Origin: an uncultured Gammaproteobacteria bacterium
GTDB taxonomy: Bacteria > Patescibacteriota > Patescibacteriia > Magasanikbacterales > UBA922
Reading direction: 5' to 3'
Length of the DNA: 64,000 nucleotides
Assembly (NCBI GenBank): GCA_964349825.1
Contig: CAYGHM010000002.1
Coordinates: 620-64,619, forward strand
How positions within the stretch are numbered: the first letter of the stretch is position 1; each line of letters starts with the position of its first letter. Made by a program: the position numbers and the translations under genes. Under the pieces are notes generated by a model that ran no database searches, was not told the DNA's origin, and saw only the letters and a program-made list of their open reading frames with translations. Positions 4,776 to 52,872 of this stretch are shown here, in pieces.

Positions 4776-5153
4776 ATGTCCTCCCCTTCCCTCAAAATTC
4801 TCCGCATCGGTCTCGGTATTACCTTCCTCTGGCTCGGATACCAAATTTGGATGGAGCCACTCGCATGGGGCAGTTTTATGCTTCCTTGGGCACAAGGGCT
4901 GATCCCTGGATCACTTGAATCATTTATGAAATCTACCGCGATTGGTGATATGTTCCTCGGTCTCTGGCTTATCATCGGCTGGCGCGTCTGGATTCCCGCA
5001 CTCCTTGCATCCCTACACCTCATCGGCGTCCTCGTAACCACGACCGGCAGCCTTGAACTCGCCGTACCCCGCGATATTGGACTATTGGCGGGCACCCTTG
5101 CAATACTGGTAGACACATTACCAACCTGGATAAAAAACAAGATGATCAAGTAA
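4776..5153 (+). CDS. small integral membrane protein (DoxX-like)
   Basis: Four hydrophobic segments, LRIGLGITFLWLGYQIW...LHLIGVLVTTTG; the similarity to DoxX is weak. Confidence 0.4.
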   Translation: MSSPSLKILRIGLGITFLWLGYQIWMEPLAWGSFMLPWAQGLIPGSLESFMKSTAIGDMFLGLWLIIGWRVWIPALLASLHLIGVLVTTTGSLELAVPRDIGLLAGTLAILVDTLPTWIKNKMIK

Positions 5154-5155
5154 AC

Positions 5156-5281
5156 AACATACGAATTACGAATCCTCGAAGACTCGGTACGAATAGCGAA
5201 TAATTAAAAGACGTTCTCCTAAGTAGAGAACGTCTTTTTTAGTTTAATTCGTTATTCGGTATTATTCGTAATTCGCATGTT
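5156..5281. mobile_element. MITE-like repeat copy A: 18-bp terminal inverted repeats flanking an internal terminator hairpin
   Basis: Left TIR aacatacgaattacgaat; right TIR attcgtaattcgcatgtt. The interior holds aaaagacgttctc-ctaagta-gagaacgtctttttt. Homologous copies sit at 15770, 30788 and 44953. Confidence 0.55.
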
Positions 5282-5317
5282 GTCATCTCTGGCAATTCAG
5301 GGACAAAACAGGTAATA

Positions 5318-5346
5318 TTGACAAAAGCAGGCAGTCATGATATACT
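5318..5346 (+). promoter_or_regulatory. sigma70-type promoter TTGACA-N17-TATACT (extended -10 TGa) driving GC-rich cassette 1
   Basis: tatTTGACAaaagcaggcagtcaTGaTATACT. Confidence 0.5.
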
Positions 5347-5517
5347 CACCCGTTCTCAAGATAGTGTATCTGAGGTTCTTTGACAACTGAATACCCTCGT
5401 AGCAGGGAGAAACATGCCCACGGACCCCGTGGCATGAGGTTCAAACCCCCATGCCCATTCGCGGGCATTATGTCACTCTCTGTTACAGAACCATTTCCCC
5501 AACACCACGAGGACACC

Positions 5518-6351
5518 ATGACGACGAAACGTACCCTCATCAGTGTGGCGACGGTCGCCATGCTCGCCCTCATCTCGGCTTCGGCATTCGCTGCCAAGCC
5601 CCCCAAGAAGGTCGCACCCTCGAGTGTGGCCGACAACAAGGAGGAGAAAGTTGCTGCTGAAGCGGCCCTGGAGCACCACTCCAAAGGAAACTTCGACAAA
5701 GCCGGCGCGCTCTACGCGGCCGCCTTCGAGAAGTGGAAGCGTGCCACGCACATCTTCAATGCAGCTCGGTGCTACCACAAAGGGAAGATGTTCGTCCGTG
5801 CAGTTCAGCTGTACAACCAGTATCTGGAACTCGCCGACGCGAGTGAAGAAGGCAAAGCTGAGGCGCGGCAGCATATCGCCGCGATCGAAGCTGAAACCGC
5901 CGTCACTACCCCGACCAAACCAGCCACCAGCAAGGAGCCGCCCACTCCGCAACCAGCAGATCCCACCACAACAACGGTGACGATCACCAAGCCCACGCCA
6001 CCATCGGCTCCAGACCGAATTCTCACCTGGAGCATGATCGGCGGAGGCAGTCTCCTGGCCCTGGCTGGAGCTGGCGGTCTCATCACGGCAGAGGCCAAGA
6101 TGACCGACCTCAACGGCAACGGCATGGACTGGGCCACACCCAATGCCCAAGCGACCTACAAGGACAGTGTCTCGGAGGTCAAAACCCTCCGCACCATGTC
6201 CATGGTGGGCGCCGGTATCGGACTCGCGGCTGCAGGCTGGGGCGTCTACCGGTTCTTTACGGAGCCAGAAGCACCTCCGTCGGGAATGCCGACGGTCCAC
6301 CCAACCATCACCCAGGACGGCGCTCGCGTCGTACTGGAATGGAAACGGTGA
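5518..6351 (+). CDS. GC-rich (about 60%) secreted or membrane-anchored protein: signal peptide, TPR-like helical domain, Pro/Thr-rich linker and two C-terminal TM helices
   Basis: SD GAGGA lies 5 nt before the ATG. The protein reads MTTKRTLISVATVAMLALISASAFA...HIFNAARCYHKGKMFVRAVQLYNQYLE...PTKPATSKEPPTPQPADPTTTTVTITKPTPP...LLALAGAGGLITA. Codon GC3 is far above the background. A GC-rich hairpin terminator follows at 6376-6420. Confidence 0.55.
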   Translation: MTTKRTLISVATVAMLALISASAFAAKPPKKVAPSSVADNKEEKVAAEAALEHHSKGNFDKAGALYAAAFEKWKRATHIFNAARCYHKGKMFVRAVQLYNQYLELADASEEGKAEARQHIAAIEAETAVTTPTKPATSKEPPTPQPADPTTTTVTITKPTPPSAPDRILTWSMIGGGSLLALAGAGGLITAEAKMTDLNGNGMDWATPNAQATYKDSVSEVKTLRTMSMVGAGIGLAAAGWGVYRFFTEPEAPPSGMPTVHPTITQDGARVVLEWKR

Positions 6352-6559
6352 CCAAGACAAAACCAAGGAGCACTGAGTGGGGCGGCAGGCTGGATCATCC
6401 AGACCTCGCCGCCCCACTCGGAGATATACACAGAGAGTGACATACCCAAACAATAATATATAACGCATAATAGGCGTTTTTTTATTTGGTAAATTCTGGT
6501 AAACTAGATAAGAATAGAGAATAGTGAATGAAGAATAAAGAATTTAATATTAATAATAT

Positions 6560-7301: not shown

Positions 7302-7339
7302 CCCTTATTATACAAAAATCCGCCATAAAGGCGGATATG

Positions 7340-7423
7340 TGGGCCGGGCATGATTCGAACATGCGAAGGCGCAAGGCCAGCAGATTTACAGTCTGCCCCG
7401 GTTGACCGCTTCGGTACCGACCC
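7340..7423 (-). tRNA. tRNA-Tyr (GTA), type II with long variable arm
   Basis: The reverse complement GGGTCGGTACCGAAGCGGTCAACCGGGGCAGACTGTAAATCTGC...TGTTCGAATCATGCCCGGCCCA has acceptor, anticodon and T stems that pair, and an anticodon loop CUGUAAA. Confidence 0.75.
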
Positions 7424-7502
7424 ATCTAACTCATTTACAATGACAGCTAGTGATTATTAGTTAACAACGGTTAGTTAGCAATCATTAAATGTCCATTAAT
7501 TG

Positions 7503-7594
7503 TGGGCCGGGCATGATTCGAACTGCGAAGCCCGCCAACGTCGGCGGGCAGCAGATTTACAGTCTGCCCCGGTTGACCGCTTCGGTACCGACCC
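7503..7594 (-). tRNA. tRNA-Tyr (GTA), second copy, with an unusually long GC-rich variable arm
   Basis: Same acceptor, D, anticodon and T arms as copy 1. The variable arm is TGCCCGCCGACGTTGGCGGGCTTCGCA and the total length is about 92 nt. Confidence 0.6.
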
Positions 7595-7688
7595 AAGATC
7601 AATATTCAATTTTCAATTTCTAATTTTTAATTGCATTCCACTTAGCACATAAATGGAAATTGAGAATTGAAAATTGGAAATTTCTAAT

Positions 7689-15755: not shown

Positions 15756-15769
15756 AATAGAGACATCAT

Positions 15770-15854
15770 AACATGCGAATTACGAATAATACCGAATTAC
15801 GAATATATATACTTTGGTAATTCGTTATTCGTCCCCATTCGTAATTCGCATGTT
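15770..15854. mobile_element. MITE-like repeat copy B (short, 85 bp) between the GT4 stop and the holB start
   Basis: aacatgcgaattacgaat...attcgtaattcgcatgtt: perfect 18-bp TIRs with an internal ccgaattacgaat/attcgttattcg subrepeat. Confidence 0.55.
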
Positions 15855-15856
15855 TT

Positions 15857-17065
15857 TTACATACCAAGCAGTACTTTTTTTGTCGCATCTGCACTAGCGC
15901 GCCAAGAAAAACGCGTAACTTCTTTATATCCTTTTATTATTGCAGCCTGCTGCAGTTCACGATCTTGCATAAACATATGCATTTTTTTCATTAATTCATG
16001 CACATGAAATGCATCGACATACGCAATAGCATTTCCTCCCACTTCTTCCAAACTATTCTCACGTGAGGCAATCACCGGAACCCCCACTGCCATGGCTTCC
16101 AGAATTGGCAACCCAAACCCTTCATACAAACTGGGAAAAACAAATACTTCGGCTCCAGCTAACAAATAAGGGATATGAGATTCTTCCACCCATCCAGTTT
16201 TAATAATATCAACGCTATGAACGCTTCCATTTATTTCATCCACCACTTTTTTATATCCAACACCCGGTTTCCCTGCCAAGACAAGCTGCACGTCATTATT
16301 AGGATATACACTTCTCATCTGGTCAAACGCTTTCACCAACCGCCACGTATTCTTTTTTTCTTCCAAACGGCCAACAGTCAGTATATAGGGTTTGGTAATG
16401 CCATATATTTCTTTTACCCGACGTATTTCTTCGACATCATCCTTCACCTCTTTTCTAAATACGCCCACATCATACGCATGTGGTACAACATAAATATGTC
16501 CAAATAATTTTTTTATTTCTTCGGAGACAACATCATATCCTCTATGAAGCGAAGCGTCTTTGCTTTCATGTTTTATTGCTTTAATGGTTTGATGACGACA
16601 AAGTCTCACCAGCTCATCGCGAGTAAAATAACTTGGTACAATAATACGCCACAAATTTCTCACCGCCACTTTTGCCGACCAAATACTGTACCATCGTTCA
16701 AACCATGTATACACAATTGGAAAACGAAAAGCCGCGACATCATGAACGGTCATGACTGTTTTTTCAGGATGAATAATGGGTGCCACATGCGCAGGAATAA
16801 ATAATACATCTGGGGCATGAAATACCATTTCCATACTCAACCGTATTTGTGTCCAAAATCTTTTTGGCGGCCATACGAGTACTTTCGATTGCCAATTTTC
16901 TGGTAATACAGCAAGTTCACCCACAAGTGGTTCTCTCGAATATAAAATAACCCGTACAGTGGACGGGATACTTTTTTTCAATTCCTGAATTATATGAAAT
17001 GCATAGACTTCCACACCAGTCTTTTCCGTATGGTTTGCCCGAGATGCATCAATACCTATTATCAT
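15857..17065 (-). CDS. family-4 (GT-B) glycosyltransferase
   Basis: The C-terminal motif VFVFPSLYEGFGLPILEAMAVGVPVIAS is typical of GT4. Confidence 0.8.
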   Translation of the reverse strand: MIIGIDASRANHTEKTGVEVYAFHIIQELKKSIPSTVRVILYSREPLVGELAVLPENWQSKVLVWPPKRFWTQIRLSMEMVFHAPDVLFIPAHVAPIIHPEKTVMTVHDVAAFRFPIVYTWFERWYSIWSAKVAVRNLWRIIVPSYFTRDELVRLCRHQTIKAIKHESKDASLHRGYDVVSEEIKKLFGHIYVVPHAYDVGVFRKEVKDDVEEIRRVKEIYGITKPYILTVGRLEEKKNTWRLVKAFDQMRSVYPNNDVQLVLAGKPGVGYKKVVDEINGSVHSVDIIKTGWVEESHIPYLLAGAEVFVFPSLYEGFGLPILEAMAVGVPVIASRENSLEEVGGNAIAYVDAFHVHELMKKMHMFMQDRELQQAAIIKGYKEVTRFSWRASADATKKVLLGM

Positions 17066-17074
17066 AGAGTGGGG

Positions 17075-17145
17075 AAGAATTTAGAATAAAGAATGAAGAA
17101 TCAAATGTATTTTATTCTCTATTCTAAATTCTTATCTCGTTGCCA
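17075..17145. repeat. GAATAGA/GAATGAA-type palindrome (family copy 3)
   Basis: gaagaatttagaataaagaatgaagaatc...tattttattctctattctaaattcttatc. Confidence 0.55.
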
Positions 17146-21383: not shown

Positions 21384-21412
21384 TTGACAAAAAACAATGT
21401 TCCTGATATGCT
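21384..21412 (+). promoter_or_regulatory. sigma70-type promoter TTGACA-N17-TATGCT for GC-rich cassette 2
   Basis: ttcTTGACAaaaaacaatgttccTGaTATGCT. Confidence 0.45.
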
Positions 21413-21518
21413 CTTCGATTCAGATGGCAGATCCAGGCCTATTGCCTCATGTCTCTGAAAGACAATTAAAAAATGATTCGTGGCATAGTACAAAAAAGGA
21501 GGTACTCTCCCGCGAATC

Positions 21519-22139
21519 ATGTCGAAACGCGGTCATCCTGACTCATTGACCCAGTCCAAGCAAGGATACACCATGTACACCAACCCCAGTGAATCTCTCG
21601 CCCTCATCCTCCGTACCATGGGAGGTATCGCCCTCGTGCGCCCTGCGCTACCTGTCGACAATATCGACGTTGCAAAGTACTTGCGCCAGCGTTGGGCAAT
21701 GACGACGCCATCGGTAGAAATCGTCGTGGCGAACGCCTCGGAAAGCGGTATCGAAATCACGATGGCGGGGATTGTCGGCAGGAGCCCACTCACCGCCTCG
21801 GTGGACATTATGCCGCTCCCGCAGTGGCAACCGATCCAGTCAGCAAGCACCATCCTCGCACGATGGCATTCGCGGATCGACGAACTCATCCTTCGGCTAC
21901 ATCCATCTCCCGTACCGACTGATCGGCTCGTCGCCGTCATCGACGACAAGCAAGCGCTTGTCGAGCTGGCTCGACGGGTGATGTTCGAGCTGAATCTGGA
22001 GATGGACTTCTTGCACAAGGCCAGCGATTTCCTCGACCGGCCTGGTGATGGTCTCATCATCGACCGCCATGGCAATATCACGGACATGCCCGTGATTCCC
22101 CGCTGCCTCAAGCACGAGTCGGTCCTTGCCTTGGGCTAG
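21519..22139 (+). CDS. GC-rich hypothetical protein (no recognisable domain)
   Basis: About 60% GC; a GGAGGT SD lies upstream; MYTNPSES is an alternative start. A terminator hairpin CCCCCGGTATGCTTCATCGCTGCCGGGGG plus T-run follows at about 22255-22290. Confidence 0.45.
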   Translation: MSKRGHPDSLTQSKQGYTMYTNPSESLALILRTMGGIALVRPALPVDNIDVAKYLRQRWAMTTPSVEIVVANASESGIEITMAGIVGRSPLTASVDIMPLPQWQPIQSASTILARWHSRIDELILRLHPSPVPTDRLVAVIDDKQALVELARRVMFELNLEMDFLHKASDFLDRPGDGLIIDRHGNITDMPVIPRCLKHESVLALG

Positions 22140-22328
22140 TAGTACTCTGTACTAGCCCGACCACCGCTCCTTCTTGAGAGTAGTTTCCCAACCCAGTGTC
22201 TTTTTTCCTGCCCTACCCTCCCGACGTAATGTCGGGGACCAAGGCGGACGTTCTACCCCCGGTATGCTTCATCGCTGCCGGGGGTTCGTCATTTTTATGC
22301 TTATTTTAGCGTAAATATGGCAAAAGTA

Positions 22329-22357
22329 TTGACAAAACTGCCGAATTATGATACACT
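22329..22357 (+). promoter_or_regulatory. sigma70-type promoter TTGACA-N17-TACACT (extended TG) for GC-rich cassette 3
   Basis: taTTGACAaaactgccgaattaTGaTACACT. Confidence 0.45.
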
Positions 22358-22571
22358 TTGCCGTTCGGTAAACAATGAAATTACCCCTTTGGGAGACCTT
22401 TCTTGTACCCGATGATCTTTGACAAGAGAATAATGTGTGAAAAATGATTTGTGGGATTTTCAGTTTCTTAGGGAGATTGAAAAACCCACAAATCGACGCA
22501 AGGCGCGTCCGAATGTGGTAACCCCTGCTGATCCGTTAAGTCGGATTGGCCATTGCTCAACGGAGCTCATC

Positions 22572-23186
22572 ATGAACGACTTGCAATTCGTCCTCAGTCG
22601 CGGCAACAAAATCTTCTTCGTCCGCCACAGCCTTGCCGCCCCGGCCGCTGAAGGCCAAGAAGATTTCAACCGTCCACTGACCCAGAAAGGCCGAGAGCTC
22701 GCCAAAAAGACCCGCAAGGAAATCGACCTGAGCAAGGTCGTCTACGTCGCCTACAACCCGGCCATTCGGTGCAAGGAAACGGCCGACGTGCTGATGGACG
22801 GCCTCAAGACGTCGCGTCTCTCCATGCCGCTCGCCTATGGCCTCCACCCGGATTCACCGGGACGGGAGGTGATTTTCCCGGTCTTCCTCCAAATCCGGGA
22901 TTCGTCCCTCGCCGACTACGCCAAACATGGCTGTGCGGAAGCCTTCACGCTGCATGCAACCACGATCCTCGGTTACATCAACAGCGTGTTGAACGACCTG
23001 CCCGAGCTGTACGGCGATCTCATGATCGTCACCCACGGCACCATGGCCGCGGCCCTCGCCCTGCACCTGGGCCAGGCGCTGAAATTCAACACCGATGAGG
23101 TGATGAACTTCAAGCCGACGGAGTGCATGGTGATCACGGTCAGCAAGGACGGCATCACCTGCCACGACTCGCAACTCGTAGACTAA
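22572..23186 (+). CDS. GC-rich histidine-phosphatase-superfamily protein (SixA/PGAM-like)
   Basis: IFFVRHSLAAP (RH-type catalytic motif) and THGTMAAAL. The start was taken at MNDLQF with a GGAG SD; the AT-rich 5-prime extension of ORF 22437.. is probably leader. Confidence 0.5.
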   Translation: MNDLQFVLSRGNKIFFVRHSLAAPAAEGQEDFNRPLTQKGRELAKKTRKEIDLSKVVYVAYNPAIRCKETADVLMDGLKTSRLSMPLAYGLHPDSPGREVIFPVFLQIRDSSLADYAKHGCAEAFTLHATTILGYINSVLNDLPELYGDLMIVTHGTMAAALALHLGQALKFNTDEVMNFKPTECMVITVSKDGITCHDSQLVD

Positions 23187-23314
23187 CGACATCATTAGTC
23201 TGGGTAGATACTCGCCTGACTACAATGATGATTGTTCACACAATCCCCCTCTTGTCGAACACCCCTGGTTGCACATGCACCCAGGGGTTTCGCTTTTTTA
23301 GAGACAAAAAAATA

Positions 23315-30078: not shown

Positions 30079-30185
30079 AAGAGAATGAAGAATGAAGAAT
30101 AGAGAATAGAGAATAGAGTAAAATGCATTTAATTTATTCTTCATTCTTTATTCTCTGTTCTTAATTCTCTGTTCTTAATTCTCTA
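30079..30185. repeat. GAATAGA/GAATGAA-type long palindrome (family copy 4)
   Basis: aagagaatgaagaatgaagaatagagaatagagaatagag...ttattcttcattctttattctctgttcttaattctctgttcttaattctct. Confidence 0.6.
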
Positions 30186-30187
30186 CA

Positions 30188-30790
30188 CTAAACATCAAGT
30201 TTATTCACCACTTTAAAATTCTTCCCCTCAAACATGCTGAATAAAAACTTATCCATCATCTCACGACGGTCACGAAATTCACGTTCTGTCATGAGGGTAT
30301 AACGGATTTCATTGCCGCTTTCTTTTTCATACTCTTCGATCATGCGGGCAATAGTATTTTCTTTGAGGTCGCCAACGATAAGCATGTCACTGGTGGCATC
30401 GTATTCACCTACGAACCTTCCGGCGAGAATGAGAAGCAATACAGAACCGCTCTTATCTTGAAGGGTTCGCAAAAATTGCTGTTCTTCCATAACCTGCGCC
30501 TTCATAATAAGCTGGTGCAATTCCGGATGCATAAGAGACCCAGTATTGAGCTGATAGTATTTTCTCAATGTCGATCCTGCTTTATATTTGTCTGACCGTT
30601 TCTGATCTTCCGCTTCAATAATAATATCAGCATCAAGAAGAAGCTGCAGTTCACGACGAATCGCATTGATCTGGGTATCAATCTGACGCGCCAATTCACG
30701 AACAAAAAAAGTCTTCTCAGGATTGTGGAAGAAGAGCTTCAATAACTTAACCCGGGTTTTTGAACCAAAAAGGTGTTCAAGCATACTAAA
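30188..30790 (-). CDS. winged-helix DNA-binding protein (putative transcriptional regulator)
   Basis: MFSMLEHLFGSKTRVKLLKLFFHNPEKTFFVRELARQIDTQINAIRRELQLL has HTH character. The start was moved to the internal Met because the listed 5-prime extension runs through the MITE copy. Confidence 0.45.
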   Translation of the reverse strand, partial: FSMLEHLFGSKTRVKLLKLFFHNPEKTFFVRELARQIDTQINAIRRELQLLLDADIIIEAEDQKRSDKYKAGSTLRKYYQLNTGSLMHPELHQLIMKAQVMEEQQFLRTLQDKSGSVLLLILAGRFVGEYDATSDMLIVGDLKENTIARMIEEYEKESGNEIRYTLMTEREFRDRREMMDKFLFSMFEGKNFKVVNKLDV

Positions 30791-30909
30791 CATGCGAACT
30801 ACGAAAAATACGAAAGTACGAACAATACAAAGCGAAAATGATTCTGAACTGACAAATTTACAAGTTACCCCCATTTCGTAATTTCGTCCCATTTCGTAAT
30901 TCGCATGTT
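30788..30909. mobile_element. MITE-like repeat copy C (diverged, with internal ACGAA/TTTCGTAA direct subrepeats) in the divergent promoter region
   Basis: aacatgcgaactacgaaa...tttcgtaattcgcatgtt; its right end abuts TTGTCT-N17-TATAAT just upstream of the 30968 gene. Confidence 0.5.
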
Positions 30910-30967
30910 TGTCTATCACGATTACATAGAGTATAATACCGCTAGGCCCAAAAGTCAAAGTATCATT

Positions 30968-33232: not shown

Positions 33233-33534
33233 ACACATGTTTATCTATCGGTGTAAATCTTCTATCCTTGACAAAAGGACCTCTTCATCTAAGAAGAATT
33301 CAAGAGAACGGAACTCCGTTCTCCGAAGAAGTCAAACAATAGATACAGGAAATGATCGTCGTTGGAGAAACCCAAATCCCCTTTGATGAAATCAGATCTC
33401 TCACAGCTGCGATAAAAAACGCCCGGCAAAGCGGTCGAGGAGTTTGAAAGAGTGTTGCCTCGCTCTCTCCCCTACCAGTGTATATAACATGTCATGAATA
33501 CCAATGTCGCAAATACAGGCACATTAATAAATTA

Positions 33535-33571
33535 AAAAACCTCTCCGATATTCTCGGAGAGGTTTTTTTAT
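33535..33571. terminator. intrinsic terminator downstream of rplL (bidirectional)
   Basis: aaaaaaCCTCTCCGAtattcTCGGAGAGGttttttt. Confidence 0.7.
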
Positions 33572-35280: not shown

Positions 35281-35355
35281 TGGTAGCGCCAAGGGGAATC
35301 GAACCCCTGTTCCCAGGATGAAAACCTGGTGTCCTGACCACTAGACGATGGCGCC
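35281..35355 (-). tRNA. tRNA-Glu (TTC), CCA encoded
   Basis: Reverse complement GGCGCCATCGTCTAGTGGTCAGGACACCAGGTTTTCATCCTGGGAACAGGGGTTCGATTCCCCTTGGCGCTACCA; anticodon loop UUUUCAU. Confidence 0.8.
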
Positions 35356-35426
35356 ATAACAATTTTGTAACAACGAGATTATATAAGAAGTAGACATAGT
35401 TGTCAAGTGTCATTTTTCTAATATCG

Positions 35427-35455
35427 TTGACTCCATACCACATTTCTGGTATAAA
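35427..35455 (+). promoter_or_regulatory. sigma70-type promoter TTGACT-N17-TATAAA for GC-rich cassette 4
   Basis: cgTTGACTccataccacatttctggTATAAAt. Confidence 0.45.
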
Positions 35456-35531
35456 TCTCTCAATTCTCTTAACCATGGTGGTGTAGGGAAATACAGTGCA
35501 GATGCGGTCAAAAACCGCATGCGAGGACAAG

Positions 35532-36314
35532 ATGAAAACTACCGCCCAAGGCCATTCGATCGTCAATGTTCATGACATGATGCGGCTGATCCGCGAGCAT
35601 GCAGCCACGCACAGGGCGCACGGCTACGCGCCTGTGTTCTGTCTGGACGTGGACGGTCTCCTGATGGACAATCGACACCGGACCCTGGCCATCCTGCGCG
35701 AACTCGTCCTGGAGGCAGACATCCCCTGGTTCACTCAGGCCATGAGCCAGATGACCCTGGAGGATATCGGCTACGGCGCAAAAGAGACGGTTCGGGGCCT
35801 GCATCAGAAATATGGCTTCGATCCCGTCTACACGTCGAAGGTGATGGTCGAGGAACTTGCCAACACGGTCTACAAGTTCTGGTTCGATCGGTTCTTCACC
35901 AACGAGTATCAGGTCCATGATGTCCCCATCATCGGCGCCCTCCGCCTCGTACAGGAGCTTCGAGACGCCGACATCGGCATCGTGTATGTCACAGGCCGGG
36001 ACGAACCGGGCATGGGAGTCGGGTTCCGAAACTCGCTCCAGCAGCATGGCTTCCCTCTCCCCGGCACGGAGGGGGTGCGCGCGATCCTGAAACCCAAATT
36101 CGAGATGAAAGATCCGGAGTTCAAGAAGAACACGCTCGAACTGCTCCAAACGATTGGTATGCGCGTCATTGGCCTCCTCGACGACAACACGCACAACGTG
36201 AACATCGTCGTGGACCTCTGCAACCTGCCCATTCTCTACGTCAGCTCCTCGGTTTCAACACTCACCAACCTCCACCCCGGAGCATTGGTGCTCGAGAGTT
36301 TCACCACCAGCTAG
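35532..36314 (+). CDS. GC-rich HAD-superfamily hydrolase-like protein
   Basis: GAGGA SD before ATG (MKTTAQG); HAD motif I FCLDVDGLLMDN; a later GRDEPG...LDDN. A GC-rich terminator CGCCCGCC...GGCGGG plus T-run follows. Confidence 0.5.
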   Translation: MKTTAQGHSIVNVHDMMRLIREHAATHRAHGYAPVFCLDVDGLLMDNRHRTLAILRELVLEADIPWFTQAMSQMTLEDIGYGAKETVRGLHQKYGFDPVYTSKVMVEELANTVYKFWFDRFFTNEYQVHDVPIIGALRLVQELRDADIGIVYVTGRDEPGMGVGFRNSLQQHGFPLPGTEGVRAILKPKFEMKDPEFKKNTLELLQTIGMRVIGLLDDNTHNVNIVVDLCNLPILYVSSSVSTLTNLHPGALVLESFTTS

Positions 36315-36451
36315 TAAGTGTTCCCGACTGGATGTCGAGACACTTCGCACAAGAGAACGCCCGCCCAGCCTTTTAGGTTGAGGCGGGTTGTTCATTTTTA
36401 TAGACAAAATAAAATATTCTTTTTTAAAGATACGCCAAACAAATCTACTTT

Positions 36452-37606
36452 GTGATAAAATATAGACTAAATATTATGTGGAAACTCTATTTAATGACGA
36501 TCCGATCTTGGTATGCTCGCCACTGGTGGTTAACACCACTGACTGTTTTTGTTATCTGGAGAATTATTTTAGAAATTATCGGACAGTCTGCCTTCATCCT
36601 ACATCCAGACATAATAATACCTTGGAAAGATAATCCCAATCCTCCAATTTGGGCTCGATGGGATAGCGGTTGGTACTACTCGATTGTAAATGACAACTAT
36701 CACCTAAAAGAAACAGGAGCAATGTCCAATGTCACCTTTTTTCCACTCTTCCCTCTTTTGTGGAAATTTATTGAAATTATTACTCCCTTAAAAGGTTTTG
36801 CCGCAGCCCTCTTTACGACCAATATTCTCACCTGTTTAGGATTTATTATCTTTTACCGCTGGATGAAAGATAAGTGGGATAAACTAATTGCGTTAAAAGC
36901 GTTAATAGCTCTAGCAATTTTTCCGACCTCTTTCTTTTTTATCAGTGCCTATAGCGAATCAACACTTTTTCTCCTTATAGTAACAACACTTTTACTCAGC
37001 TCAAGACAGCAATGGAAGCTCGCAGCAATAACAGTTGCACTAGCGAGCGCGTCGCGTCCCACAGGTATTTTTTTATGGCCGCTCTTGCTATGGTTCTGGT
37101 GGTTACACTATGCAAACAAGTCAAAACCACGGCATGAATTTTTCACAATATTATTTATTCCACCAGTTGGACTTATTATTTTTTCCGCATATCTCTATAT
37201 CAAAACAGGTAATCCTCTTGCATGGTTCACCAGCCAATCAGCTGCTGGACGAGATTTAGTATTACCTACTAATCTCTTGTGGGCATATACCAAAAATATA
37301 TTTGTCAGAGGAGATTATTGGTTAAAACATGTGGCAGAAATGGGAGCATTACTTTTTACAGTAGCCCTATTACCCACATTGAGAAAAATACATCCAGCCT
37401 ATGTATTCTATACTATATTAAATCTTCTTCCATCACTTTTTAGTAATACGCTCACAAGCATACAACGTTTCGTCCTAGTGATAGCACCTTTATTTTTGGC
37501 AGTTGTGATGCAAAAAAAATGGATATATGCGATATATTGTACAATTTCTGGTATTTTACTCTTATACAGCATTCTTTGTTTTATTACTTTTCAATGGGCA
37601 GGTTAA
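36452..37606 (+). CDS. polytopic membrane protein, putative GT-C-type glycosyl/mannosyltransferase (DUF2029/PIG-V-like)
   Basis: About 10 TM helices; the loop motif WARWDSGWYYSIVNDNY is typical of the GT-C mannosyltransferase-like family. Confidence 0.45.
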   Translation: MIKYRLNIMWKLYLMTIRSWYARHWWLTPLTVFVIWRIILEIIGQSAFILHPDIIIPWKDNPNPPIWARWDSGWYYSIVNDNYHLKETGAMSNVTFFPLFPLLWKFIEIITPLKGFAAALFTTNILTCLGFIIFYRWMKDKWDKLIALKALIALAIFPTSFFFISAYSESTLFLLIVTTLLLSSRQQWKLAAITVALASASRPTGIFLWPLLLWFWWLHYANKSKPRHEFFTILFIPPVGLIIFSAYLYIKTGNPLAWFTSQSAAGRDLVLPTNLLWAYTKNIFVRGDYWLKHVAEMGALLFTVALLPTLRKIHPAYVFYTILNLLPSLFSNTLTSIQRFVLVIAPLFLAVVMQKKWIYAIYCTISGILLLYSILCFITFQWAG

Positions 37607-37635
37607 TGGTTTAAAAGGGCTATTTTTATTTAGTA

Positions 37636-37664
37636 TTGACAAAAAACTCAATTTATGATAAACT
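37636..37664 (+). promoter_or_regulatory. sigma70-type promoter TTGACA-N17-TAAACT (extended TG) for GC-rich cassette 5
   Basis: agtaTTGACAaaaaactcaatttaTGaTAAACT. Confidence 0.45.
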
Positions 37665-37778
37665 TCTTTGTTATTTATGTTGGTATAAATAACGGATATT
37701 TTGCTTATCTTCTCTTATGGAAGGTTATAAAAATACCCGTTAGTTTCCAAACACACTCAATACGGGTTGGAGGTGCAC

Positions 37779-38159
37779 ATGCGAAAGTGGACTCTCGTCG
37801 TTATCCTCTGGGATCACGGCAGCAGCTACGAAGCGACCACAATGAAGCTGGTGCGGAGGAAGGACGTGGAAGGATACCTGAAATCCGTGACAAAACACGG
37901 GCAAACACAGGCCATCCCGGGGTTCTTCCAACAGCAGAAGGTGGCGTTCCGGACGTTTTCCGAAGCGTTCCCTGGCCACGTCATCCCCCTGAAGGAGGAA
38001 AAGCGTCCCAGCTGGAAAACGCCGCTGGCAATGCTGACACTTTCCGTGGACAGGGAATCAGTGCTGCGACTCGCGGCCATCCTCAAAGACAGGCCAATCG
38101 CTGTCTTCGAGGGTCATCGCCGTCAAGGTGCCCCACCAGTACAACTACTGTGCGTGTAA
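37779..38159 (+). CDS. GC-rich small hypothetical protein (127 aa)
   Basis: GGAGGTG SD 5 nt before the ATG (MRKWTLVVILWDHGSSYEA...); about 58% GC; followed by a chain of hairpins. Confidence 0.45.
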   Translation: MRKWTLVVILWDHGSSYEATTMKLVRRKDVEGYLKSVTKHGQTQAIPGFFQQQKVAFRTFSEAFPGHVIPLKEEKRPSWKTPLAMLTLSVDRESVLRLAAILKDRPIAVFEGHRRQGAPPVQLLCV

Positions 38160-38285
38160 TACGCAAAATACCCCATCTTCCACCATACGGTGGGGTAGAG
38201 CGATATCTGACTTTATCGCTCCATCTGTTTGCAACAGATGTTCTCGGCTTCACAGCCTGTGAGGAAGGAAAGGTCAGACAACTTG

Positions 38286-38342
38286 GACCGCCCGCAATCA
38301 CTTAAAATTATAAAACATTATAATTTTAAGTGACGGGCGGTC
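38286..38342. terminator. very long perfect hairpin closing cassette 5 (about 24-bp stem)
   Basis: GACCGCCCGcaaTCACTTAAAATTATAAaacaTTATAATTTTAAGTGACGGGCGGTC. Confidence 0.55.
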
Positions 38343-38441
38343 TTTGTGTTTTTACCTATTTCACAAAACTATTTTTATTTATCTTGATTTTCCCCCGGTT
38401 TCATGTTTTAATGCTTTAATGTTTTATTGTTTTCATATCAC

Positions 38442-39569
38442 ATGATCATCCTCGCCATCGAATCCTCCTGCGACGATACTTCAGTCGCCTTACTCGACGC
38501 CTCCGACGAGGGTATTATTGTGCTCGAACAAAAAACTGCGAGCCAGATTGATATTCACAAAAAATATGGCGGTGTTGTTCCTGAAGTGGCAGCGCGCAGA
38601 CATGCGGAAGTTATTCTTCCTGTGGTCGAAACTGTCATGACATCTCTTTCTGTGGGATCATACCCTGGTATGATCCACTCTCCCAACAAACCGGATGCCA
38701 TTGCCGTAACCTCTGGTCCCGGTCTCATCACCGGCCTTATGGTTGGTATTGAAGTGGCAAAAACATTGTCATACACATGGAATGTGCCGCTTATCGGCGT
38801 GAATCATATTGAAGGACATATACACTCATCAATTCTAAATGACAAATTTCAAATTTCAAATTTCAAAAAAAATGCCTTTCCTGCGGTGTGTTTGATAGTA
38901 AGTGGCGGACATACGGAATTAATTTTGATGAAAGACTTTGGTGTATACGAAAAAATTGGTGGAACTAGGGATGATGCGGCAGGAGAAGCATTTGATAAAG
39001 TAGCAAAATTACTAGGATTGGAATACCCAGGCGGACCAAAAATTTCCGAATATGGAAAAACAGGAAATCCCCATGCGATTCGCTTTCCCCGCCCCATGGC
39101 GGATAGCGATGATTTTGATTTTAGTTTTTCTGGATTAAAAACAGCCGCACTCTACTGGTTGAGAGATAATTCTCTCCAGGAAATAAACACAAATCCATTT
39201 GGTGCGATTGCTTCGTGGTTTGGAACAAAAAAAGATGGCATTACCAAAAATGATTTTTGTGCATCTATCGAACAAGCCATTGTAGACGTATTGGTAAAGA
39301 AAACCATGAATGCCATTAAAAAATATAAACCAAAATCTCTCATTCTCGGAGGCGGTGTGAGTAATAATACAAAACTCCGAGAAACCTTGGTGTACGCAGC
39401 AGCACCAGAATTAGGAAAAGAACATATTCATATTCCGGAACGCGAATACACGATGGATAATGCAGCAATGATCGGCGCTGCGGCATATTTTAGACTGAAA
39501 AAAGGTGAGCACATTTCTCGGAAAGACATTCAGCCTGATCCAAATTGGAAAGTATACGATAAAAAATAA
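38442..39569 (+). CDS. tsaD: tRNA N6-adenosine threonylcarbamoyltransferase TsaD (Kae1/YgjD family)
   Basis: MIILAIESSCDDTSVALL..., GVNHIEGHI, VSGGHTEL and DDAAGEAFDKVAKLLGL are canonical motifs. Confidence 0.9.
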   Translation: MIILAIESSCDDTSVALLDASDEGIIVLEQKTASQIDIHKKYGGVVPEVAARRHAEVILPVVETVMTSLSVGSYPGMIHSPNKPDAIAVTSGPGLITGLMVGIEVAKTLSYTWNVPLIGVNHIEGHIHSSILNDKFQISNFKKNAFPAVCLIVSGGHTELILMKDFGVYEKIGGTRDDAAGEAFDKVAKLLGLEYPGGPKISEYGKTGNPHAIRFPRPMADSDDFDFSFSGLKTAALYWLRDNSLQEINTNPFGAIASWFGTKKDGITKNDFCASIEQAIVDVLVKKTMNAIKKYKPKSLILGGGVSNNTKLRETLVYAAAPELGKEHIHIPEREYTMDNAAMIGAAAYFRLKKGEHISRKDIQPDPNWKVYDKK

Positions 39570-44866: not shown

Positions 44867-44952
44867 TGAACATGCGAATCCCTCCTTCGCTAAGAAGCTA
44901 CGGTCCGACGTAAAGTATGGACTCCGTATCGCAAGCATCGGAGCGGGCACGT

Positions 44953-45065
44953 ACGAATAATACCGAATTACGAATTATAATAAAAAAGACACCCTCTACT
45001 AAGCAGGGTGTCTTTTATTATTCGCTATTCGTACCGAGTCTTCGAGGATTCGTAATTCGCATGTT
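44953..45065. mobile_element. MITE-like repeat copy D (inverted relative to copy A; left TIR truncated) carrying a terminator hairpin with compensatory stem changes
   Basis: acgaataataccgaattacgaat...aaaaaagacaccct-ctactaagc-agggtgtctttt...ttattcgctattcgtaccgagtcttcgaggattcgtaattcgcatgtt; the 45-bp block is identical to the reverse complement of copy A. Confidence 0.55.
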
Positions 45066-50432: not shown

Positions 50433-50996
50433 ATGACAGCAGTGTATATCCTTATTGGTATAATTGTCCTCCTCGGCCTGTGGATCATTGGCCTATACAA
50501 TGGCCTTATTACCCTACGAAACCGTGTAAAAGAAGCATGGAGTGATATTGATGTTCAATTGAAACGTCGGCACGATCTTATTCCAAACTTACTAGAAAGC
50601 GTAAAGGGGTATATGACCCATGAACGCACTTTGCTTGAAAACATCACAAAAGCTCGTTCCCAAGCTATGACTGCACAAGCAAGTGGGAACACAGCCGAAC
50701 TCGCAAAAGCAGAATCCGCCTTATCCAGTATGATGGGAAGTTTGCGTATTGCCGTTGAAGCTTATCCAGATCTCAAAGCAAATCAAAACATGGCACAGCT
50801 CATGGACGAATTATCCGATACAGAAAACAAAATTCAAGCATCACGTCGCTTCTACAATGGACAGGTGCGTGATTTCAATACAAAAGTTGAACACTTCCCA
50901 ACAAATATGATCGCAGGATCATTGAAATTCGAAAAATTTGGATACTTCGAGATTGAAGATCCAAAAGAACGCGAAAATGTACAGGTGAAATTCTAA
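50433..50996 (+). CDS. lemA: LemA-family membrane protein
   Basis: N-terminal TM followed by YNGLITLRNRVKEAWSDIDVQLKRRHDLIPNL, the LemA signature. Confidence 0.8.
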   Translation: MTAVYILIGIIVLLGLWIIGLYNGLITLRNRVKEAWSDIDVQLKRRHDLIPNLLESVKGYMTHERTLLENITKARSQAMTAQASGNTAELAKAESALSSMMGSLRIAVEAYPDLKANQNMAQLMDELSDTENKIQASRRFYNGQVRDFNTKVEHFPTNMIAGSLKFEKFGYFEIEDPKERENVQVKF

Positions 50997-51070
50997 GAAT
51001 AGAGAATAATGAATAAGGAATATCGAGATGAAAAAAATTCTTCATTTTCAATTCTTCATTTTCAATTCTC
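50996..51070. repeat. GAATAGA-type palindrome (family copy 5, shorter)
   Basis: aagaatagagaataatgaataaggaatat...ttcttcattttcaattcttcattttcaattctc. Confidence 0.5.
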
Positions 51071-52303: not shown

Positions 52304-52386
52304 CAAAAACAGACAAACAAAAACACCCCTCTTACGGGGTGTTTATTTTTCTAATATGGCCAGCCCTGAAAACACTTGTGGTCATA

Positions 52387-52815
52387 TCAGGGCACTTGGC
52401 CGGGCACCTCCTTGGGGTAGTTGATCGGGCGCAGATAACCGCGCCGGGTGACGTAGTTCGTCAGGTAGCTGCTCGTGTAGCTGAAAAAGACGGGCGACAC
52501 ACACGACATCAGGAGCTCAGGCGAATCATTCCACCAATGGCCTGTGAAACTCATCGCAAACGTGAGCGATCCAGCAGCAAGACTCCCCAAGAAATACGAA
52601 CGAAACGCATTGCGAATGGGAGAAAAATGCTGGACAAGCCGTGCGGATACACCAGTTGACAGGAAGCTCGCACATGCCTGGGCGAAGGCAGCAGAAGTGG
52701 CCAAGCCTACCCCATGCTCCCAATTCACACAACAGGCAATTATTGCCTGAAACACAGCGGCCGCACAAGCGAACTTCAGGTTGAACAGGTTGTGATACAT
52801 CAAACGCCAATTCAC
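52387..52815 (-). CDS. GC-rich small membrane protein (hypothetical), GTG start
   Basis: Minus-strand promoter TTGACG-N18-TATACT (52841-52870), SD GGAGGTGA and a GTG start. Hydrophobic segments AAAVFQAIIACCV and FLGSLAAGSLTFAMSF. About 58% GC. The + strand ORF 52294..52659 was rejected. Confidence 0.4.
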   Translation of the reverse strand: MNWRLMYHNLFNLKFACAAAVFQAIIACCVNWEHGVGLATSAAFAQACASFLSTGVSARLVQHFSPIRNAFRSYFLGSLAAGSLTFAMSFTGHWWNDSPELLMSCVSPVFFSYTSSYLTNYVTRRGYLRPINYPKEVPGQVP

Positions 52816-52872
52816 TCGTCACCTCCACTTTGTCGCTATCAGTATAGGCATGGAAAGGTGTTTACGTCAATA

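Follow-up and report, generated by a model that had tools for sequence, protein, structure and literature searches.

A chain of hairpins behind an orphan gene upstream of tsaD in a Candidatus Magasanikbacteria genome: probable 3' UTR with an over-long intrinsic terminator

The chain of hairpins that follows a small GC-rich gene next to tsaD in our 64-kb window (the whole stretch of 64,000 nucleotides of DNA analyzed here) is real and non-random and favors the sense RNA strand. It probably represents the 3' UTR together with the over-long Rho-independent terminator of an inserted, self-contained and lineage-specific unit. The element as a whole is of an ordinary kind in an unusual form, and it is carried by a genuinely orphan gene. 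TsaD, encoded at 38442-39569, places the host in Candidatus Magasanikbacteria (CPR/Patescibacteria), with 64% TsaD identity to the best relative. The region 37636-38353 is one monocistronic unit composed of promoter, Shine-Dalgarno sequence, ORF, 3' UTR and terminator (Table 1), and apart from minor corrections its sequence agrees with the preliminary description of 37636-38345.

Table 1. Features of the unit upstream of tsaD, its flanks, and promoters of the same type in the window.
Feature	Position	Strand	Evidence or remarks
Perfect 13-nt direct repeat CTATTTTTATTTA, left copy, separated by 3 nt from the downstream -35 box of the unit	37620-37632	+	
Promoter TTGACA, 14 nt, TGA, TAAACT (-35 box and extended -10)	37636-37664	+	10 of 12 matches, TG present
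AT-rich 5' UTR	37665-37778	+	From sequence
Shine-Dalgarno sequence GGAGGTG	37769-37775	+	From sequence
126-aa ORF, orphan family of four sequences	37779-38159	+	Codon-position GC, homologues
H1, 9-bp hairpin, 11-nt loop, one G-U pair	38169-38197	+	-12.7 kcal/mol, z -2.4
H2, perfect 8-bp hairpin GAGCGATA/TATCGCTC, 8-nt loop	38198-38221	+	z -5.3
H3, perfect 8-bp hairpin CATCTGTT/AACAGATG, 3-nt loop	38222-38240	+	z -4.4
H4, weak ambiguous hairpin, CUUCACA/UGUGAGG or GGCU/AGCC	38241-38270	+	z -0.7, not significant alone
H5, compound terminal hairpin, proposed terminator stem	38286-38342	+	-34 kcal/mol, z -11.2
U-tract TTTGTGTTTTT, directly 3' of the GC clamp	38343-38353	+	9 T of 11
Perfect 13-nt direct repeat CTATTTTTATTTA, right copy, separated by 2 nt from the -35 box of the downstream putative tsaD promoter	38369-38381	+	
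Putative tsaD promoter TTGATT-N14-TGt-TTTAAT	38384-38412	+	Sequence; downstream of the terminator
TTGACAAAA-N12-TGATAnnCT promoters	5318-5346, 21384-21412, 22329-22357, 37636-37664	+	Each heads a GC-rich single-gene unit

Folding of the 201 nt at 38160-38360 yielded a minimum free energy of -86.5 kcal/mol compared to -44.6 +/- 4.5 kcal/mol for shuffled sequences (z -9.3), and none of the 200 shuffles folded as well, so that the ~190 nt after the stop codon, which had been described as a chain of hairpins, are structured beyond chance. The two stems of H2 and H3 that had been listed before are each perfect over 8 bp and individually significant (Table 1), and H1, absent from the earlier list of stems, precedes them. 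H1, H2 and H3 abut each other directly, with linkers of zero nt. The GGCT/AGCC stem noted before can be kept as a possible alternative pairing, but it is weak, and the minimum free energy structure of H4 prefers CUUCACA/UGUGAGG. H4 is followed by a purine-rich, GGA-containing single-stranded stretch, GAGGAAGGAAAGG, and then by the 57-nt H5, which consists of a 9-bp GC clamp (GACCGCCCG/CGGGCGGTC), a CAA bulge, a perfect 16-bp AT-rich stem and an AACA loop. Within H5, the perfect palindrome TCACTTAAAATTATAA-N4-TTATAATTTTAAGTGA occupies 38298-38313 and 38318-38333. What had been reported as a 24-bp perfect inverted repeat is actually composed of 9 bp and 16 bp, with CAA unpaired on the 5' arm only.

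A bias towards the sense strand is seen even without H5: H1-H4 fold with a z of -5.2 on the sense and -2.9 on the antisense strand, and sense-strand G-U pairs are present in H1 and H4. Folding of the hairpin region as single-stranded DNA is likewise significant (z -9.0). The region is not the strongest fold outlier of the window, as AT-rich palindromes at 2481-2600 and elsewhere score equally high or higher.

On the coding strand only, the GC clamp of H5 is directly followed by TTTGTGTTTTT, and no T-tract is found after H5 on the opposite strand. Because this tract directly follows, H5, located ~125 nt past the stop codon of the ORF, reads as an intrinsic terminator whose stem is overly long. 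A typical intrinsic terminator has a stem of ~5-15 bp and a loop of 3-8 nt, and the other terminators in the window have 8-15-bp stems. H5 provides a stable GC-rich stem-loop on the transcribed strand and a U-rich tract right after the stem, but with 25 paired positions and a 3-nt bulge it departs from the typical geometry, and a consensus terminator scanner did not call it.

Based on these features, we propose that the hairpin chain would form the GC-rich 3' UTR of the mRNA of the 126-aa ORF, and that H5, with its 9-bp GC clamp and 16-bp AT-rich apical extension, would act together with the U-tract as a Rho-independent terminator. Termination at H5 would stop transcripts started at the strong extended -10 promoter from running into the tsaD promoter and could in this way insulate tsaD. 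The putative tsaD promoter starts ~30 nt past the U-tract and ~40 nt past H5, and its -35 context, ATCTTGATTT, is common to the closest relative, L001. The packed hairpins H1-H3 would most likely fold the 3' end of the mRNA and thereby slow its degradation by 3'-to-5' exonucleases, or alternatively serve as a back-up for termination or pausing. The perfect AT-rich inner palindrome within the GC clamp may have been added later to a terminator that was at first a simple GC stem, possibly by a template-switch or palindrome-perfecting event, or it may be a site acting at the DNA level. Two features count against a terminator and 3' UTR: the 25-bp bulged stem is far longer than that of typical intrinsic terminators, and the four hairpins go beyond what the homologous genes carry. 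At the 5' end of the transcript, the 5' UTR showed no significant fold and no riboswitch-like structure (z -1.2 to -2.1).

The gene of this unit runs from an ATG at 37779 to a TAA at 38157-38159. The preliminary description had identified the same ORF and stop; its length of 127 aa holds only as codons including the stop, and the protein has 126 aa. The GC contents of the three codon positions (0.61/0.42/0.69) follow a GC-rich coding pattern, and an exhaustive HMMER scan retrieved three full-length homologues (P0002, P0003 and P0004) of 120-131 aa with ~30% identity, among which W11, TT20-21, FF49-50, E62, FPG64-66, P70 and W79 are invariant. All three homologues are found on CPR-like contigs, each in its own promoter-ORF-terminator unit. 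Codon composition and homologues together support the 126-aa ORF as a real coding gene. An overlapping ORF of 216 aa (37655-38305) shows a frame-shifted GC pattern and starts with an ATG inside the -10 element, which points to a wrong frame. Public predictions (NCBI, ENA and Logan assemblies) contain this 216-aa ORF, which extends across H1-H4, and not the 126-aa ORF. Because public gene callers chose the 216-aa ORF, exact look-ups failed, and a word-indexed search of 5.8 billion proteins did not return any relative of the 126-aa protein. The public gene call is corrected here by replacing the wrong-frame prediction with the 126-aa ORF.

No match to the 126-aa protein was found in Pfam, PHROG, PADLOC or NCBIfam, no relatives of the ORF turned up in scans of genome, metagenome or viral contigs, and BLASTN and TBLASTN searches of phage and plasmid collections were likewise without a match. 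An AF2 model reached a pLDDT of 74.6, and no fold match to it was found. Together with its homologues, the protein defines a tiny new family of four members without recognizable fold. The 3' UTRs of the three homologues are only 55-75 nt long and each contains one simple terminator, so the hairpin chain is not conserved within the ORF family. In line with this, the earlier remark that the region holds more structure than a terminator needs is borne out by comparison with these relatives.

Comparison of tRNA-Glu/tsaD loci in Magasanikbacteria (L001-L034) points to an accessory origin of the unit. In most Magasanikbacteria compared, a spacer of roughly 70-420 nt separates tRNA-Glu, which is sometimes accompanied by tRNA-Met, from the downstream tsaD (e.g., in L001-L005, L009, L012, L013, L027 and L029), whereas the gap spans 3087 nt here, within 35281-38442, and contains a GC-rich unit encoding a HAD-like protein (C4), an AT-rich 384-aa ORF, and the 37636-38353 unit. 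The cargo at this position differs between lineages: L021 harbors 2.8 kb of different sequence, L011 and L014 carry 0.95 kb of other cargo, and L007 encodes a Cys-rich secreted protein. In L030, the spacer holds 0.7 kb with a small GC-rich ORF and a ~20-bp terminator stem; this GC-rich unit is unrelated to ours, yet it also ends in a long-stem terminator. The presence of unrelated cargo in several lineages marks the tRNA-Glu/tsaD spacer as a hot spot of recurrent insertion in Magasanikbacteria and the 37636-38353 unit as accessory DNA. Judged by the other genomes, the unit sits inside a lineage-specific insertion of 3.1 kb, which agrees with the earlier idea of a cassette. Two further assemblies of the same species are at least 99.94% identical over the region and have zero differences in 35400-38400, so the unit is not an assembly artefact. 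A literature search on Magasanikbacteria, horizontal gene transfer and GC content returned nothing relevant. Elsewhere in the window, two tRNA-Tyr(GTA) genes lie adjacent to each other (7339-7423 and 7502-7595); the second is 94 nt long, reaches only 38 bits against the Rfam tRNA model, and could represent an atypical copy or one with an intron.

The unit is flanked by the two copies of CTATTTTTATTTA, the only ones in the 64-kb window. Among composition-matched shuffles, 21 of 3000 (0.7%) contained a repeat of at least 13 nt, and no flanking direct repeats were found around the other five GC-rich units. The repeat suggests an insertion or a duplication of a promoter region and is not proof of either. 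If anything, it is this repeat and not the palindrome that marks an insertion boundary: its copies are located outside the hairpins, which places the junction away from the palindrome. Both the position of the repeat and the uniqueness of the palindrome in the window speak against the proposal that the palindrome is an attachment site bounding the cassette.

With 52-59% GC compared to ~41% for the window, six islands stand out as GC-rich (4848-6471, 21475-22316, 22477-23297, 35465-36411, 37729-38258 and 52304-52837). Each holds one monocistronic accessory gene under a promoter of its own, and they are interspersed among housekeeping genes. The UTRs usually comprise a long 5' UTR of ~50-240 nt and a structured 3' UTR, and the cargo includes HAD-like, histidine-phosphatase-like, TPR-membrane and unknown proteins. 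A structured GC-rich 3' UTR with a terminator recurs in other units, and the 37636-38353 unit is the extreme of this trend and not an object of another kind; on the sense strand, z-scores of the 3' UTR were -7.2 (C1), -5.0 (C3), -5.6 (C4) and only -2.3 (C2) in four of the five other units. The window contains four matches to the promoter pattern TTGACA-N14-TGnTAnnnT, compared to 0.24 expected, and all of them belong to GC-rich units; the more specific TTGACAAAA-N12-TGATAnnCT form is common to four of the six units. No TGATA extended -10 accompanies the perfect TTGACA boxes of host promoters. Promoters of this type are common in related loci, where their link to GC-rich downstream DNA is only partial. 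At 33268-33570, a fifth TTGACAAAA -35 box is followed by ~250 nt of moderately GC-rich sequence with only a 31-aa ORF, and the stretch is closed by a strong terminator (33541-33570); it could be a small-protein or ncRNA unit.

The window also contains AT-rich palindromic intergenic repeats, which fall into two families. Family A, characterized by CGAATTACGAAT-type words, is found at 5150-5290, 44952-45065, 15760-15865 and 30789-30910; a pair of its copies share 89% identity across 115 nt, and a terminator hairpin is nested within one copy. Family B, with GAATAGAGAATGAAGAATA-type words, is found at 2490-2582, 30080-30170, 17074-17133, 6503-6549 and 50994-51069 and has arms of up to 32 nt with 97% complementarity; its members are the strongest fold outliers of the window. 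The approach that detected these families was also applied to the unit, and the H5 palindrome belongs to neither of them. Its arm TCACTTAAAATTATAA has no second copy in the 64-kb window, even with three mismatches allowed. Pattern scans with the palindrome and with H2-H3 gave no match in viral contigs and only two unrelated AT-rich palindromes in metagenome contigs, and short-word BLAST searches in which both UTRs were compared to the window and to 86 loci returned chance matches only, those in L017 and L020 being inspected by eye.

Among the other readings of the hairpin chain, a functional RNA would be either a 3'-UTR-derived sRNA or a cis-regulatory element such as a protein sponge or a leader-attenuator of tsaD. 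The strong sense-biased folding, the direct abutment of H1, H2 and H3, and the GGA-containing stretch between H4 and H5 would suit such a role, but we consider it quite unlikely. Searches of the hairpin region against Rfam returned no family at gathering thresholds; the best matches were miRNA-precursor models at ~30 bits compared to thresholds of 60-100 bits, a level of hairpin noise. Furthermore, the chain is missing at the three homologous loci and in the tsaD upstream regions of related genomes, the tsaD promoter lies downstream of H5, an internal promoter is not evident, and pairing of the 3' UTR with the ribosome binding sites of its own ORF, tsaD and the neighboring unit C4 was not significant. 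The only other copies of the 3' UTR are 100% identical and hence offer no variation for covariation. Alternatively, the chain may have no function as RNA: the 16-bp palindrome would then bind a dimeric protein as an operator, be prone to cruciform formation or result from a recent mutation that perfected it, and H1-H4 would be a functionless relic of a GC-rich donor. This is unlikely in our view, even though the perfect palindrome taken by itself could equally be a protein-binding or recombination site at the DNA level. Its 16/16 complementarity and host-like AT composition inside an otherwise GC-rich hairpin, the equally significant fold of single-stranded DNA, and the many long intergenic palindromes tolerated by this genome are consistent with it. 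On the other hand, the geometry of GC clamp and U-tract is exactly that of a terminator, the sense-strand G-U pairs in H1 and H4 favor a structure at the RNA level, and a second half-site is missing from the window.

By analogy with integron attC or tyrosine-recombinase core sites, the palindrome or the whole folded 3' end could also be the place where a trans-encoded recombinase inserted a promoter-bearing cassette. The unit does lie in a hot spot beside tRNA genes and between direct repeats that occur nowhere else in the window, and H5, with 57 nt and an unpaired bulge, is inside the attC size range. Nevertheless, such a site appears very unlikely: the RYYYAAC and GTTRRRY core motifs are absent at or near 38271-38360, the palindrome occurs only once in the window, and the 3' hairpins of the other five GC-rich units bear no relation to those described here, nor do these units have flanking direct repeats. 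No terminal inverted repeats were detected around the unit (score of 7.5 compared to a shuffle mean of 6.9), and a scan of ~50 of roughly 58 window ORFs, all of which are housekeeping or unknown, revealed no integrase, transposase or reverse transcriptase. Moreover, each unit has a promoter of its own, the units are scattered and not arrayed, and the position of the direct repeats places the palindrome off the junction. We regard it as highly improbable that the GC-rich promoter-bearing single-gene units of Magasanikbacteria are undescribed mobile cassettes which would enter AT-rich promoter-proximal targets with the help of a recombinase encoded elsewhere that uses the folded 3' hairpin or palindrome; if they were, the 37636-38353 unit between its 13-nt repeats at tRNA-Glu/tsaD would be one such insertion. 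A lack of conservation and a unique palindrome had been named in the preliminary description as speaking against a structured ncRNA and a recombination site, and both are what we observe, the uniqueness applying to the 64-kb window.

A 3' UTR with a terminator thus remains our preferred reading. Taken alone, the element is of little weight, being a well-formed and unusually elaborate 3' end on an orphan accessory gene. The wider pattern of GC-rich single-gene units in Magasanikbacteria, with consensus extended -10 promoters and structured UTRs and located between housekeeping genes, may merit study.

Compared to known systems, the unit resembles integron attC cassettes in that a single small accessory ORF is followed by a folded imperfect palindrome at a variable locus. 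Integron cassettes are promoterless and arrayed beside the intI integrase and attI, and their attC sites carry R'' (RYYYAAC) and R' (GTTRRRY) core sites at the ends of the palindrome. In contrast, our unit has its own promoter and terminator, R''/R' motifs, integrase, attI and a cassette array are lacking, and the 3' hairpins of the other units are unrelated. An integron gene cassette was rejected on the grounds of the missing core motifs, the own promoter, the dispersed units and the lack of an integrase among the ~50 ORFs. Likewise, a transposable element with target-site duplication was rejected: the 13-nt repeat is present, but terminal inverted repeats were not found, nor was a transposase among the ~50 ORFs. 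REP/BIME-type and MITE-like intergenic palindromes, which stabilize upstream mRNA, resemble our chain in combining stable palindromic hairpins with an intergenic 3' UTR location; the hairpins described here differ in being single-copy in the window, mutually unrelated and outside both window families, and a REP/MITE-like repeat was discarded for its single copy. From known Rho-independent terminators, our putative one differs by its 25-bp stem with a 3-nt bulge and perfect AT-rich apical 16 bp, and by the three or four abutting hairpins that precede H5. Long-stem intrinsic terminators are known to serve as 3' mRNA stabilizers ("retroregulators"), e.g., the cry terminator of B. thuringiensis. 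With Rho-independent terminators, our element shares a GC-rich stem base and a U-tract on the coding strand, a very stable hairpin, and a location after the stop codon and before the promoter of the next gene.
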